Made by a program: the position numbers and the translations under genes
DNA from: Octopus vulgaris
Lineage: Eukaryota
Assembly (NCBI GenBank): GCA_951406725.2
Contig: OX597820.1
Location: forward strand, 102,796,001-102,860,000
Direction of reading: 5' to 3'
DNA length: 64,000 bases
Notes under the pieces: generated by a model
What the model was told of the DNA's origin: nothing
Database searches by the model: none
Seen by the model: the letters and a program-made list of their open reading frames with translations, nothing else
Shown here: positions 812-45,131 of the stretch, piece by piece
Numbering within the stretch: position 1 is the stretch's first letter
Layout of the letters: every line of letters begins with the position of its first letter

Positions 812-960
812 AGGGGAAGAATGCAGAAAGAAAAAACCAAGGTCGAAGACAGGTGGTGTAGACAACAAACAAATGTATTAGTATAACGCTCGGGAAGTGA
901 AAAATTCTTTAACATTTCGAGCCTAAGCTCTTCCACAGAAAGTAACACAGAAACAAGGAG
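812..960 (-). mobile_element. Short PLE-derived element between TA tracts with a hammerhead-like motif (905-942)
   Basis: Minus strand reads cttt-CTGTGGAA-gagc ttag gctc-GAAA-tg-TT-aaag; flanked by TA-rich repeats. Confidence 0.5.
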
Positions 961-1782
961 GTATACTTATATATACATGTATATATATATATATATATAT
1001 ATATATATATATATATATATATATATATATATATACACACACACATATATACACATATTTATATGTACATACATAGGTATATATATATATATATATATAT
1101 ATATATATATATATATACACACACACATACGTACTTATTAATATAGATATGTACAAAATATAGATATATTATGCACACAATAATTATCTTTCTGTATCTG
1201 TATTTATATGCATTTATTGATAGCAATGAGTATGATAGAATGCATATTCATTTTTGAACAGGTTCTAGATGAAGGTTGTGATTATGGTTATATATATATA
1301 CAGAAACTAGTGAAAAATATAATATAAACATGTATATATAAAACTGAGCAAAGACCATATGCCATATCTGTATATATGACGTTTTTAATTTAGGTTTGTT
1401 GTTCAAATATTGTAATAGCAGTTGTAGCAACGGTTGAAGATTTGAAGTCGCTGAAAGCGATGGTGATTATGGCATTGAATTTGCATAAGCTGATGATTGC
1501 CACCCCAGTATCTAGTGATTGTAATCGTAAAGATGCTGTGAAAGATGATAGATATGGTGCGTAGGGTGATTGATGAGTGTGATGACGATGTATTTAATAG
1601 CACGAAGATGGATGAACTTGGTGTCAATATGCTAGTAGCAGCGGAAATATTTTCCCACCTCCTCCAACACCACCTCCGTTCCCTTCATCATCACATCACC
1701 ATCACCATCTTCACCACATCCCATTTTAAAACATTCTTTGTTGCCCATCTGCTTTATCCCCATCACCTCTATCATTCCCACT

Positions 1783-1883
1783 ATCATCATCATCATCATC
1801 ATCATCATCATCATCCTCCTTCTCATCATCATCATCACCATCATCACTATTATCATCATCATCGTCATCATCATCATCATCAT
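1783..1883. repeat. (CAT)n trinucleotide microsatellite
   Basis: Direct repeat; source of the poly-His, poly-Ile and poly-Met ORFs. Confidence 0.95.
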
Positions 1884-2014
1884 CCTTCCATCTTATCACG
1901 GAGCGCCCACGCGGATAAACGTGATCAAATTTGGCGTTTTACCATTATTTACTGGCTTTCACTAGAGGAAATAGTTTTGCCCATACTTATCTCCAGGCCT
2001 TCAGTGGCTTGCGA

Positions 2015-39427: not shown

Positions 39428-40098
39428 TGGGGCATGCGCTGTAACAAAGCGTTGCCACATCCACCATTTGTTGGCGATTCCTTGCTCCTTTGCATTACTC
39501 AGGCGACAACCTTCCGGCCAATGGGTCTGTTTGAGTAGTCGTTTGAGAGTTTTATGAGGTCGGAGTGCAATTCCTATCTCAATGTCTTTTAGTCACCTTT
39601 TACGACACGTAGAAGAAAATTTTGGCCCAGTCTTTGACATGCCGATCCCCACGTAGTACGATTAAGAAGCATTTTTATTTTGAATCTAAGTTTTAACTGA
39701 TAGTTAAAAGAAATGAAGCTCCACTCAAGTGATACAACAATACATTTTCAATTTCATTTTAAAGATCATGTCTCAGTTATGAATCTTACAAGAACCAGTT
39801 TTCTGAGTCGTCAATATGAAGAGCATTTGCATTTAATGAAAGAAAACATATATGATATATGATATATGATATTTTACTTCCCTATTACCCAAGTGACAAT
39901 TCCACTCGATCTCTTTTCCTCACTGTTTGACAAACGGTAATCGAACTTATCCAACTTCTTACTATTTCTAACATTGGATTTATTGGATTTTTTTAAACGC
40001 TCCTCTGCATATATCAAATTACTTCTGGAAATTTCTCGATGAATTCGCCATTATATATAATATATATATATATATATATATATATATATATATATATA

Positions 40099-43000
40099 TA
40101 TATATGAAAAAAGGTTTGAAAATGCAATTTAAACGATGTTTATTTACTTAACCGGTTTCACTCTTTGTTAAAAAGATTGTCAAAAGTAACATTGAATATT
40201 ATGGGTTCAAAAAAGTTTTTTACATAATTGTCACATTGAATATTATGAATTCAAAAATGTTTTTTTATACATAATTGTCACATTACATGTATAAATATAG
40301 TATAAAAAAGTTCAATAGTGTGATGAGAATATTTGGAAAAATTGGCAGAAAAGAATAAAACAAATATATTATTGGAAATTTGGTTGCGTTAATTATTGGT
40401 TGTCGCAAATTGTCACATTACATGTATATATATACAGTCTTTGGTAGAAATGACATGTTAAAGACATAAGGAAGTGTAATAGTTTGGTGAGAAAGCTTGT
40501 AATATTGACAGAGAAAATTAAAATGGATATTTTAGACATCTCAGAATATTTTGAATCGAAGGCGAGAATTTGTTTTTTACTGACCTGTTTGTTTTAGCAG
40601 AAAAGTTGAATTGAGAGAAAAAAAGATATGTACCCAATTTGGTTTATACTTCCCCTTCAAGCATCAGTGACTTTGGGGTTATTGGGAGGTGAGTATGCGG
40701 GTGTGAATAGATGTGTCCGTGTGCCTGCTGGTCAGACAGCGTCTGTTTGTCACACACATATATACACACACACACACAACAACAATACACACACACACAT
40801 AGTATACACACACACACCACATACACACAACACACACACACACAGAACACACACACACACAACGCACCCACATATATAATATATACACACAGCACACAAA
40901 TATAACATGTATTTATATATAATATACACACATATATAACACATACACACACAACACACACACACACACTGACACACACACACACACACACACATATATA
41001 CATAATATAAATATCACACAAATACACCTAGCATATATATACACATACAATACACATACACAGCATGTATATAATACACATACACAATATATGCATGCAA
41101 TATACATACGCAATACATACATATAATATATATATATATAGACAATGCATATACATATATACATATATACATATAAATAGTGTTTACATACACATACATA
41201 GATATACCACATATACACACAATATACATACATACAATGCATACACATACACGTACGCATACATATAAAATATATAGACACACACACACATAACATACAT
41301 ACACAATGCATACATATATATACACGCAACGTATATACATGTATTCATGTATATATAGCACACTTACAATATACATATATACAATGCACACATACACACA
41401 TATATACACTTAATTGTACACATACATATACAATACACATACATACAATATACATATACACAATGCGCATGCAAATAATGCACATGTTTATACACCCATA
41501 TACATGAAAATATATATACACACACACACATACACACACACATATATATATATACACATATATATATATATATACACATATACATACATACATACATGCA
41601 CATACATATATTTTTTCACACACATACACACACATATATATATAAAATTCACACACACACCCACACACACAAAATACAAACCTATAGTGTACACACTCAA
41701 ATATATCTCTACATACCGCACACACACACAAACAATGTACTCACATATACACACATACCATGCATATACACACACAGCACACACACATATATATATATAT
41801 ATATATAAACAAATACACATGTAAATACATACACTCGTACACAATGCTCACACACACACACATACACACACACACGCACACAGTGCACACACACACACAT
41901 ATATACACACGTGCACACACACACACACAACGCGCACACACACACACATACACACACGCACACAGTGCACACACACACACACACATATAAACACACGCGC
42001 ACACACACACACACAACGTGCACACTCACACACACACACACAACACTCACACACATACATAACCTACATATATATAATGCATGCGTGTGCGTGCCACGTA
42101 TGTGTGCGGTCAATGCCCGCATAGGACACACTAGCGGGCATTGACCGCACACATACGTGGCACGCACACGCATGCATTATATATATGTAGGTTATGTATG
42201 TGTGTGAGTGTTGTGTGTGTGTGTGAGTGTGCACGTTGTGTGTGTGTGTGCGCGTGTGTTATATGTGTGTGTGTGTGTGTGCACTGTGTGCGTGTGTGTA
42301 TGTGTGTGTGTGTGCGCGCGTTGTGTGTGTGTGTGTGCACGTGTGTATATATGTGTGTGTGTGTGCACTGTGTGCGTGTGTGTGTGTATGTGTGTGTGTG
42401 TGAGCATTGTGTACGAGTGTATGTATTTACATGTGTATTTGTTTATATATATATATATATATATATGTGTGTGTGCTGTGTGTGTATATGCATGGTATGT
42501 GTGTATATGTGAGTACATTGTTTGTGTGTGTGTGCGGTATGTAGAGATATATTTGAGTGTGTACACTATAGGTTTGTATTTTGTGTGTGTGGGTGTGTGT
42601 GTGAATTTTATATATATATGTGTGTGTATGTGTGTGAAAAAATATATGTATGTGCATGTATGTATGTATGTATGTATATGTGTATATATATATATATGTG
42701 TGTATATATATATATGTGTGTGTGTATGTGTGTGTGTGTATATATATTTTCATGTATATGGGTGTATAAACATGTGCATTATTTGCATGCGCATTGTGTA
42801 TATGTATATTGTATGTATGTGTATTGTATATGTATGTGTACAATTAAGTGTATATATGTGTGTATGTGTGCATTGTATATATGTATATTGTAAGTGTTAT
42901 ATATACATGAATACATGTATATACGTTGCGTGTATATATATGTATGCATTGTGTATGTATGTTATGTGTGTGTGTGTCTATATATTTTATATGTATGCGT

Positions 43001-44157
43001 ACGTGTATGTGTATGCATTGTATGTATGTATATTGTGTGTATATGTGGTATATCTATGTATGTGTATGTAAACACTATTTATATGTATATATGTATATAT
43101 GTATATGCATTGTCTATATATATATATATTATATGTATGTATTGCGTATGTATATTGCATGCATATATTGTGTATGTGTATTATATACATGCTGTGTATG
43201 TGTATTGTATGTGTATATATATGCTAGGTGTATTTGTGTGATATTTATATTATGTATATATGTGTGCGTGTGTTGTGTGTGTGTGTGTGTGTGTGTGTGT
43301 GTTGTGTGTGTATGTGTTATATATGTGTGTATATTATATATAAATACATGTTATATTTGTGTGCTGTGTGTATATATTATATATGTGGGTGCGTTGTGTG
43401 TGTGTGTGTTCTGTGTGTGTGTGTGTTGTGTGTATGTGGTGTGTGTGTGTATACTATGTGTGTGTGTGTATTGTTGTTGTGTGTGTGTGTGTATATATGT
43501 GTGTGACAAACAGACGCTGTCTGACCAGCAGGCACACGGACACATCTATTCACACCCGCATACTCACCTCCCAATAACCCCAAAGTCACTGATGCTTGAA
43601 GGGGAAGTATAAACCAAATTGGGTACATATCTTTTTTTCTCTCAATTCAACTTTTCTGCTAAAACAAACAGGTCAGTAAAAAACAAATTCTCGCCTTCGA
43701 TTCAAAATATTCTGAGATGTCTAAAATATCCATTTTAATTTTCTCTGTCAATATTACAAGCTTTCTCACCAAACTATTACACTTCCTTATGTCTTTAACA
43801 TGTCATTTCTACCAAAGACTGTATATATATACATGTAATGTGACAATTTGCGACAACCAATAATTAACGCAACCAAATTTCCAATAATATATTTGTTTTA
43901 TTCTTTTCTGCCAATTTTTCCAAATATTCTCATCACACTATTGAACTTTTTTATACTATATTTATACATGTAATGTGACAATTATGTATAAAAAAACATT
44001 TTTGAATTCATAATATTCAATGTGACAATTATGTAAAAAACTTTTTTTGAACCCATAATATTCAATGTTACTTTTGACAATCTTTTACCAAAGAGTGAAA
44101 CCGGTTAAGTAAATAAACATCGTTTAAATTGCATTTTCAAACCTTTTTTCATATATA
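40099..44157. repeat. About 4.06-kb palindrome with arms of about 2.02 kb and a 13-bp spacer at 42121-42133
   Basis: 40099-42120 is the reverse complement of 42134-44157; mirrored ORFs, for example 40628..40879+ and 43377..43628-. Confidence 0.97.
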
Positions 44158-45131
44158 ATCCCACTCGTGCGATACCCCACAACTCAACTTTTTTATATAT
44201 ATATATATATATATATATATATATATATATATATATATATATATATATATATATATATATATATATATATATATATATATATATATATATATATATATAT
44301 ATATATATATATGTGTGTGTGTGTATGGATGTGTGTATGTATATATATGTATGCTATATATATATATATATATATATATATATATATATATATATATATA
44401 TGTAATACACCTGGAAAGGGAAAAAAACGCTAATACTATAATATACTAAAACGAAAATTCTCTTATATAATTTGTTCAGCACTGATATCCTATTACATTT
44501 AGGAAGAATGCTGTGACTTGTGTCCTAAGTCAATTTGCATTGTAAAGTAAAATGACTATAACCAGATGCCATATATACACGCAAACTAAATATTTCACGC
44601 CAGATATGCATTATTTATATGGATTGAGGTCTTGTATCTTACAATCATAGTATTGCAATAGTCTAATCTTACTGAACATCAGCAACACCTGTTCAGATAA
44701 ATAGACATTATCATATACTTCACACGTATAAAAATGTTCAAACTTTACAAATGCTGTACCTCAAGAGCTTTCATTGTAGTTACAGTCTCGGTCGCTGTCA
44801 AATAGCATCTCAATATTGGACTACCACTACAGAAAAACATAACTTCACTGCTGGGAGATTGCCGTCATTCTACGATTAATATATATTTCATATGTCTCGT
44901 ATAATACAACTGAATATGCGCACAAATATTTCACGTAACCACCATCATCCACCATGTAAGGAAAAGAGAAACCGCTCCAACCGATTAGCAAACAACTGCA
45001 CACTGCTTGTAATACAATAACATATATTGTATCCTCTCAATATTTATTCCGGTCTTCAGAATAATCTAGATATGTATGATTTTTACCACTACATATATAT
45101 CCCTTTCTGATGAACTGTTTTACACTTGCTA

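Follow-up and report, generated by a model that had tools for sequence, protein, structure and literature searches.

A 64,000-nucleotide stretch of the Octopus vulgaris genome (contig OX597820.1; hereafter, the window) carries six hammerhead-like motifs beside (TA)n runs, and one of them, in element 4, belongs to a high-copy repeat family whose conserved core has the 3-8 base pair reversed to G3-C8. The motifs, fold-backs, tails and TA junctions are observed directly, as are the repeat family and its conserved G3-C8. We consider it likely that the elements are 5′-truncated insertions of several unrelated Penelope-like element (PLE) families, and that family 4, with its family-wide G3-C8, would keep the 3-8 pair and cut slowly as a dimer.

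Table. Elements and motifs in the window, by position
Feature	Positions	Strand	Details
Element 1, PLE-like repeat 3′ end	812..942	-	motif at 905-942; likely decayed
Element 2, hammerhead-like motif	10563..10674	-	motif 10591-10674; core CUGGUCA; likely decayed
Old diverged family 4 copy	15230..15372	-	73.5% identity over 102 columns; duplicate near 23550-23690
Element 3, head-to-head fold-back	27864..28074		left motif 27898-27935 (-), right arm (+), tail 28009-28074
Element 4, fold-back	33890..34206		arms 33889-34017 and 34024-34152; tail 34153-34206; sits between two TA runs
Element 4, G3-C8 minimal type I hammerhead-like motif, left arm	33972..34021	-	G3 34014, C8 34009
Element 4, second G3-C8 motif copy, right arm	34024..34069	+	stem I down to 3 bp after 5′ truncation
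Element 5, Hydra-type end	34271..34430	-	motif 34370-34430; stem III ACUC-G-GAGU; likely decayed
Element 6, long fold-back	40106..44190		arms 40106-42120 and 42134-44150; tail ~40 nt
Element 6, U3-A8 motif, left arm	40144-40189	-	core UUGACAA
Element 6, U3-A8 motif, right arm	44068-44112	+	core UUGACAA

Re-reading the window placed all six motifs, with their cores and strands, where a sequence-only reading had put them. As that reading had also claimed, each motif points to a nearby TA run: a run of at least four units lies 28-100 nt downstream in 6/6 elements versus 12.8% of background positions, a comparison in which the six elements were picked partly for their TA proximity. Arm alignment bore out three head-to-head palindromes with one longer arm (elements 3, 4 and 6); in each, one arm ends at TA and the other extends by ~66, ~54 and ~40 nt, respectively. 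All six share a single topology overall, with two deviations: in element 1 the stem III sequence AAUGUU is an imperfect palindrome, and in element 6 the register between stem II and GAAA is off by 2 nt.

We then compared the window with locally shuffled sequence. A descriptor that required a perfect core, accepted any Watson-Crick pair at 3-8 and set minimum lengths of 5 bp for stem I and 4 bp for stem II matched the window once, at element 4, and matched in 0/300 shuffled windows. Allowing one mismatch gave two matches (elements 3 and 4), a result equalled by 4/300 shuffles, and the two-mismatch class, which holds element 2, gave seven matches versus a shuffled mean of 1.95 and maximum of 5 (20 shuffles), a modest enrichment with duplicated copies among the seven. 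Element 4 alone clearly exceeds chance on its own merits. The relaxed descriptors thus picked up elements 2, 3 and 4, but elements 1, 5 and 6 failed them altogether. A covariance-model search gave no Rfam hammerhead family among the 150 listed of 201 matches in the window, nor in any of the 28 matches over 33890-34500; the Rfam matches in the window were microRNA hairpin and microsatellite noise and were rejected.

The six cores fall into three groups: element 6, a known variant; element 4, a clean swap; and elements 1, 2, 3 and 5, which look decayed. The earlier suggestion that some cores are variants rather than decay therefore stands for elements 4 (G3-C8, family-wide) and 6 (U3-A8, already known) but probably not for the other four. 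In element 1 (CUUU CUGUGGAA GAGC-UUAG-GCUC GAAA UG UU AAAG; TA run 94 nt downstream of the motif), the core CUGUGGAA is A6U relative to CUGAGGAA. Element 2 (UCAU CUGGUCA, a long stem II, GAAA CGGCCG UA AUGA) has a perfectly palindromic stem III, ACGGCCGU, and two core departures, A6G and a broken 3-8 pair; a second copy lies at 18907-18990, within a near-identical 8.3-kb duplication that spans a 100-N gap. Element 5 (GAUAA CUGAAGC ... GAAA CUCGGAG UU UUAUC) has lost A9. None of these three cores is intact in the copy at hand, and each has probably decayed from the canonical core. The same probably holds for the left motif of element 3 (CUGU CCGACGA ACG-GGAA-CGU GAAA CUCAGAG UA ACAG): its core is not intact, with U4C, and the right arm retains U4 (UGACGA). 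The arms of this element are 71 nt long and match at 94%, the tail is on the right arm only, and the copy is broken off just upstream of the core.

Element 6 (UUACUU UUGACAA ... GAAA CCGG UU AAGUAA) has arms of ~2 kb (2002 matches, 5 mismatches and 18 gap columns) and a non-coding, mostly microsatellite body of ~2 kb. Its core is U3-A8, a variant already known from Schistosoma Cercyon elements (Cervera and de la Peña 2014, PMC4209133). U3-A8 covariation and U4C and A6C variants, akin to the elements here, also appear among the natural core variants of Perreault et al. (2011, PMC3088659).

The motif of element 4 reads UUUGUCA GUGAACAG GUCGC-loop-GCGAC GAAA AUAU UU UGACAAA. Its core, GUGAACA, carries the G3-C8 swap with all other core positions intact: U4, G5, A6, A9, G12, A13, A14, A15.1-U16.1 and H17 (a U) are present, together with a 7-bp stem I, a 5-bp stem II with G10.1-C11.1, an extra G after A9 and the palindromic stem III AAUAUU. 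Since this core is neither C3-G8 (CUGANGA) nor U3-A8, element 4 is a variant and not a plain hammerhead member. The predicted cut site lies between 33979 and 33978. The arms are identical at 129/129 positions, the Watson-Crick 3-8 pair is kept in both, and the element is broken off just upstream of the core; its exact centre junction was spanned by no listed contig. Fold prediction led us to reject the fold-back itself as the source of a cleaving dimer, because its motifs occupy opposite strands, and the 129-bp hairpin of a read-through RNA would bury the sense copy. A candidate short intron in the 3′ part (GTGAAT near 34087 to TTTCAG at 34162) was unsupported among the 15 listed of 123 joints in family 4 contigs.

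To follow family 4 beyond the window, we surveyed the contigs of four runs (X1, X8, X12 and X15; three organism labels), which held 12,219, 4,323, 5,333 and 1,216 family 4 records, respectively. Loose ends at 34152/34153 entered TA directly in 63 contigs of X1, 37 + 43 of X8 and 45 of X12; other contigs continued through the tail to about 34170-34206. Independent runs thus show two 3′ termini, with and without the tail. Summed depth dropped from the 3′ end toward the motif, and the family extended upstream of the element 4 break point (loose ends at 34022). Most of the 15 listed joints, identified from short sides of 18-41 nt at 80% likeness, joined the arms at differing points, as expected of independent fold-backs. 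The family 4 pattern had 0 matches in viral contigs; its one match in metagenome contigs, inside a bacterial sigma-factor-like gene and with no stems, was set aside as chance.

In none of the four runs did a C>G or G>C change reach 4% at any position. In X8 and X15, the positions that vary at this level all lie outside both core boxes and outside 15.1-17; for X1 and X12, seven run-by-place entries in five rows (X1: two C>T, one G>A; X12: three C>T, one C>A) lie beyond those listed, so that a minor C8U or G3U could be among them. In X12, one loose-end consensus with low agreement has U at position 8. Loop II varies in both sequence and length; other letters reach 89% in X12, which is dominated by another subfamily. 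In the stems we observed one-sided changes only, among them a stem I A>G change (6-35%) that leaves a U·G pair; with two independent window sequences, no two-sided covariation was seen. The old relative in the window retains G3 (15361) and C8 (15356), although it carries A9G, most of its stem I is lost, with the 3′ strand decayed, and no TA run lies closer than 3.5 kb. Because the swap is stable across runs while loop II varies, and the old copy keeps it, G3-C8 is the state of the family and not decay of this copy. Such conservation reflects master elements and does not prove selection on catalysis.

Whether a conserved G3-C8 motif cuts is a separate matter. The motif could be catalytically dead or nearly so, a relic that became fixed early on in a master element and has persisted as a structure that binds protein or is neutral, and we give this account of its activity a substantial, though minority, chance. 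PLE insertion in vitro needed no hammerhead cleavage and anole reads showed no RNA ends at the cut site (Frangieh et al. 2024, PMC11167929), canonical hammerheads are missing from Naiad PLEs, which spread nonetheless (Craig et al. 2021, PMC8557442), and the AAUAUU duplex of family 4 stem III is very weak (predicted -0.2 kcal/mol). However, two changes preserve the 3-8 pair exactly, and the other core letters are intact in diverged subfamilies despite the change in loop II, for which drift alone would hardly suffice. In the anole PLE hammerhead, that of the PAc (Poseidon) element of Anolis, cleavage is partly restored by an engineered C3G/G8C double change; the natural core there is C3-G8, whereas that of family 4 is G3-C8 (PMC11167929).

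In the literature searched, C3G with G8C occurred in engineered mutants only and no natural G3-C8 hammerhead was found, although Lünse 2017, on small PLE hammerhead variants, or supplement file 1 of PMC4209133 may list one. The accessible part of PMC3088659 does not name G3-C8 among natural core variants. In the portion of PMC4209133 at hand, the representative motifs begin CUGA or UUGA and none GUGA, unlike element 4, whose core the descriptors given there would have missed. If it cuts, the G3-C8 of family 4 would apparently be an undescribed natural variant. We know of this core otherwise only as an engineered rescue mutant.

We suggest tentatively, at somewhat less than even chances, that some abundant lineage of animal PLEs depends on a hammerhead that is active, has its core reversed to G3-C8 and has persisted as subfamilies turned over. 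Were this so, CUGANGA-based searches would miss whole PLE families, perhaps including some now scored as lacking a hammerhead; family 4 is a reason to broaden such search patterns. The fixation of G3-C8 in a retroelement family of high copy number lends natural support to the 3-8 pair, and elements 3, 4 and 6 together bring three of the four pairs possible at 3-8 into one window. Family 4 also offers a ready test of whether catalysis is what keeps PLE hammerheads in place, a question left open in PMC8557442 and PMC11167929.

The system as a whole is probably ordinary PLE debris in an already published arrangement and adds no new mechanism. PLEs carry a minimal hammerhead near the 3′ end, insert into (TA)n (a bias of the Hydra, Naiad and Neptune clades) and leave an inverted 5′-truncated copy with a tail on one arm (PMC4209133, PMC8557442). 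Metazoan PLE hammerheads likewise have a short stem I, an extra nucleotide after A9, G10.1-C11.1 and a palindromic stem III, and occur mostly as solitary copies, plus opposite-strand pairs 100-700 bp apart (PMC4209133). Hydra-clade PLEs combine (TA)n insertion with a 7-nt stem III insert, as in elements 3 and 5 (PMC8557442). Compared by eye with File S2 of that paper, the Hydra-2_aMil stem I CUGU/ACAG equals that of element 3, and the Hydra-clade stem III ACUC-N-GAGU is common to elements 3 and 5, with element 5 equal to Hydra-2_aMil. One Hydra-clade family was noted with an inverted 5′-truncated copy, as here beside elements 3, 4 and 6 (with variable joints in family 4). Every Hydra-clade core in File S2 is CUGANGA, unlike the cores here, and the octopus Hydra-clade family that PMC8557442 lists has stems that differ from ours. 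Hydra-clade PLEs are marked by RT and endonuclease motifs (RWK and DKT, no CCHH), but no ORF is attached to elements 3 and 5 in the window.

In this explanation we infer that the parents were PLEs, how they inserted and whatever catalytic activity the motif had. A PLE protein would nick (TA)n and start reverse transcription at either of two sites in the element RNA, so that some ends carry the tail and others lack it. Two RT start sites account for the PLE tail of PAc, which likewise favors AT-rich targets (PMC11167929), and thus for a tail on one arm, although the tails here are longer than the 30-40 nt described for PLEs. cDNA synthesis would then stop early, so that in most copies just the final 100-300 nt are present, and second priming on the opposite strand would yield the head-to-head copy. 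If the motif was ever active, it would have been in the parent element's tandem precursor RNA, and the fold-back copies in the window would be dead by-products.

The sequence-only reading had instead proposed non-autonomous, PLE-dependent families targeting (TA)n. Of this proposal, the PLE link, the (TA)n targeting and the inverted arrangement are supported, and each is a published PLE feature. Dedicated SINE-like or retrozyme-like families that borrow PLE proteins seem to us unlikely, at perhaps one chance in a few. EN+ PLEs encode a telomerase-like RT with a GIY-YIG endonuclease. We found no coding sequence upstream of any motif in the window and no RT or GIY-YIG remnant, Pfam on 144/286 stop-free fragments of at least 48 aa giving only mariner and gypsy pieces. 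Without a parent RT in the window, however, non-autonomous mini-elements and truncated PLE ends are indistinguishable. A further 12 probes (11-16 letters; elements 1, 2, 4, 5 and 6) matched no PMC8557442 consensus, in which line breaks can hide matches. Animal non-LTR retrozymes, reported as non-autonomous PLE derivatives, are likewise non-coding and hammerhead-bearing (bioRxiv 10.64898/2026.07.22.740005), but their defining trait is a head-to-tail array with a hammerhead per unit, and the elements here are dispersed, single or head-to-head. Copies 3 and 4, moreover, end at variable points beside the core, and contigs carry family 4 further upstream. Only element 6, by its ~2 kb non-coding body, points to a non-autonomous element.

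Truncated PLE insertions also account better for the fold-backs than do MITEs or foldback DNA transposons, or assembly artefacts with motifs arising by chance, a very improbable reading that could draw on the perfect inverted arms, the 8.3-kb duplication across the 100-N gap and the loose descriptors, which do match shuffled sequence, but that is at odds with asymmetric, tailed arms and varying centre breakpoints in place of fixed, symmetrical terminal inverted repeats, with both 3′ termini in independent runs, with the strict motif's absence from every shuffle and with the Hydra-clade stems of elements 3 and 5.

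All six hammerhead-like motifs claimed by the sequence-only reading were found as written, confirming the original observation. A strict descriptor required U4, G5, A6 and A9, a Watson-Crick pair of any kind between positions 3 and 8, and GAAA followed by a palindromic insert and UH; among the six elements, element 4 alone passed it. With minimum stem lengths of 5 bp (stem I) and 4 bp (stem II), we observed one match in the window and none in 300 locally shuffled windows. Element 3 passed at one mismatch, a class with two matches in the window, a number reached by 4 of 300 shuffles; element 2 required two mismatches, a class where chance matches are common. 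Element 1 failed because its stem III is imperfect, element 5 because A9 is lost and element 6 because its stem II is off register; Rfam returned no hammerhead among the matches listed. Elements 1, 5 and 6 are raised by their context: as had been claimed, all six motifs face a nearby TA run, 28-100 nt downstream, versus 12.8% of background positions, a comparison that carries a selection bias.

Coordinates of elements and other features in the window
Feature	Position (strand)	Remark
Element 1	905-942	
Element 2	10591-10674	Doubled by the 8.3-kb duplication
Element 3	27898-27935	
Element 4	33972-34021	Family-4 copy, 33890-34206
Element 5	34370-34430	
Element 6	40144-40189/44068-44112	
Old family-4 copy	15230-15372 (-)	Doubled by the 8.3-kb duplication
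Splice-like signals, 3' part of element 4	34087-34162 (+)	GTGAAT ... TTTCAG, ~75 nt apart
Seventh, older head-to-head element	31225-31720	Between microsatellites; arms ~70% alike, one longer
Decayed hammerhead-like stretch in the seventh element	near 31290-31345 (-)	
Further short inverted repeats	11172-11250, 24429-24718, 32825-32879, 37592-37631, 60209-60286	No recognisable hammerhead core; arms of 24429-24718 enclose a SINE-like stretch
Mariner-type (Transposase_1; DUF4817 below its cut-off) and gypsy (RNase H, integrase) remnants	7481-7723, ~34700-35330, 46728-47042, 53434-54362, 62302-63473	Pfam; 46728-47042 and 53434-54362 resemble LINE pieces, by eye only
SINE-like dispersed repeats, one of two families (72-93% alike)	45119-45521, 47869-48286, 33199-33480, 24935-25106, 63564-63784	
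SINE-like dispersed repeats, other family (72-93% alike)	5615-5698, 12467-12586, 36593-36768, 38530-38705	
Direct 8.3-kb duplication	7855-16072 vs 16173-24390	99.8-100% identity; flanks a 100-N gap (16073-16172)
U4 snRNA match	8218-8351 (-), 16534-16667 (-)	56.4 bits vs Rfam gathering score 46

Element 4 belongs to a repeat family (family 4) with a hammerhead motif, termini and a conserved G3-C8 swap. Its core runs G3 U4 G5 A6 A7 C8 A9, followed by one extra G, a 5-bp stem II opening with G-C, GAAA and the AAUAUU palindrome; U17 and a stem I of 7 bp complete the motif. Family-level evidence came from the window itself and from public contigs of four sequencing runs (X1, X8, X12 and X15), aligned to element 4 at 80% likeness with a 4% share threshold for variant places. 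Any reversion to C3-G8 should be visible as C>G together with G>C changes; no such place reached 4% in any of the four runs. With every place at or above 4% listed, none fell inside the core boxes in X8 and X15. In X1 and X12, three and four entries beyond those listed are C>T, G>A or C>A, and there may be minor C8U or G3U there. The old copy, at 73.5% identity to element 4, has G3 and C8, with A9 and the greater part of stem I lost. The swap is therefore old and family-wide. Loop II varies among subfamilies in letters and length, other letters reaching 89% at a single position of the left arm in X12, and an A>G change in stem I leaves a U.G pair; two-sided stem covariation was not seen in family 4.

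The sequence-only reading had suggested that some cores may be undescribed variants rather than decay. This is supported for element 4 and, as an already known variant, for element 6; for elements 1, 2, 3 and 5 it is probably wrong. Elements 1, 2 and 5 depart from CUGANGA by uncompensated breaks at conserved positions, and decay would be the simplest reading of these window copies. Element 6 has a U3-A8 core, already known from ~1,300 Schistosoma motifs (PMC4209133) and likewise given by Perreault et al. 2011 (PMC3088659). In element 3, the left arm reads CCGACGA and the right arm retains UGACGA, so U4C is likely confined to one arm. Element 3 shares its stem I with Hydra-2_aMil, a family of the Hydra clade of Penelope-like elements (PLEs), and stem III of elements 3 and 5 is ACUC-N-GAGU, as in Hydra-clade motifs, whose cores in File S2 of PMC8557442 are all CUGANGA. 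A natural G3-C8 hammerhead was not reported in the portions of the literature searched, which included PMC7151607, PMC11014351, PMC6155905 and PMC10085705, with Lünse et al. 2017 and one PMC4209133 supplement file outside the search. In family 4, a known ribozyme shows a well-supported and apparently new core variant, with putative activity.

The palindromic architecture described earlier, with one longer arm in three elements, was borne out: elements 3, 4 and 6 are head-to-head fold-backs whose 5' ends meet at the centre, one arm stopping in TA and the other being longer by ~66, ~54 and ~40 nt, respectively. According to Craig et al. 2021 (PMC8557442), PLE insertions are heavily truncated at the 5' end and target (TA)n, with a truncated copy in inverted orientation and, at one end, a tail of 30-40 nt. 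Frangieh et al. 2024 (PMC11167929) explain the tail by reverse transcription starting at two sites, and solitary minimal hammerheads, thousands per genome, and opposite-strand pairs have been read as truncated PLEs (Cervera and de la Pena 2014, PMC4209133). Since these sources already describe the architecture, the overall system is a known one, probably PLE debris. Non-LTR retrozymes, as defined in bioRxiv 10.64898/2026.07.22.740005, are tandem arrays, whereas the window elements are not.

Records matching element 4 numbered 12,219 in X1 and 1,216 in X15 (organism label A), 4,323 in X8 (D) and 5,333 in X12 (E), which shows an abundant repeat but is no copy number. Contigs left element 4 at 34152/34153 directly into TA (63 in X1, 37+43 in X8, 45 in X12), coinciding with the stop of the left arm; others went on through the tail. 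Summed contig depth fell towards the motif, and the overall pattern fits target-primed insertion with 5' truncation. Among the 15 of 123 joints listed, most connect the two arms at differing points; because the joint sides are short, support for numerous independent fold-backs is moderate. The families had been called non-autonomous. Element 6, with a non-coding body of ~2 kb, is the best case, whereas family 4 continues upstream of its window copy (contig loose ends at 34022); no parent ORF was found in the 144 of 286 fragments scanned. Short introns are known at PLE ends; splicing of the splice-like signals in element 4 had no support among the joints listed.

The 3-8 pair is exchangeable, C3G/G8C partly rescuing cleavage (PMC11167929), and minimal PLE hammerheads cleave slowly, as dimers (PMC4209133). 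We predict, at slightly better than even confidence, that the family-4 hammerhead is active. In a tandem precursor RNA of the parent, two motifs would pair via AAUAUU and cleave after U17. A protein would probably assist the pairing, since the calculated stability of an isolated AAUAUU duplex is just -0.2 kcal/mol. Read-through RNA of the element 4 fold-back is predicted to form a 129-bp hairpin (-232 kcal/mol) concealing the sense copy; as the motifs also face opposite ways, the genomic fold-backs would be by-products.

The window is animal-type DNA (34% G+C) with dense TA, CA and other microsatellites, and would probably fit the genome of an octopod cephalopod. It contains mariner and gypsy remnants and, by eye, likely LINE and SINE remnants. 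The 8.3-kb duplication is likely a false duplication by assembly, and through it the U4 snRNA match, a gene or pseudogene, is present in two copies.
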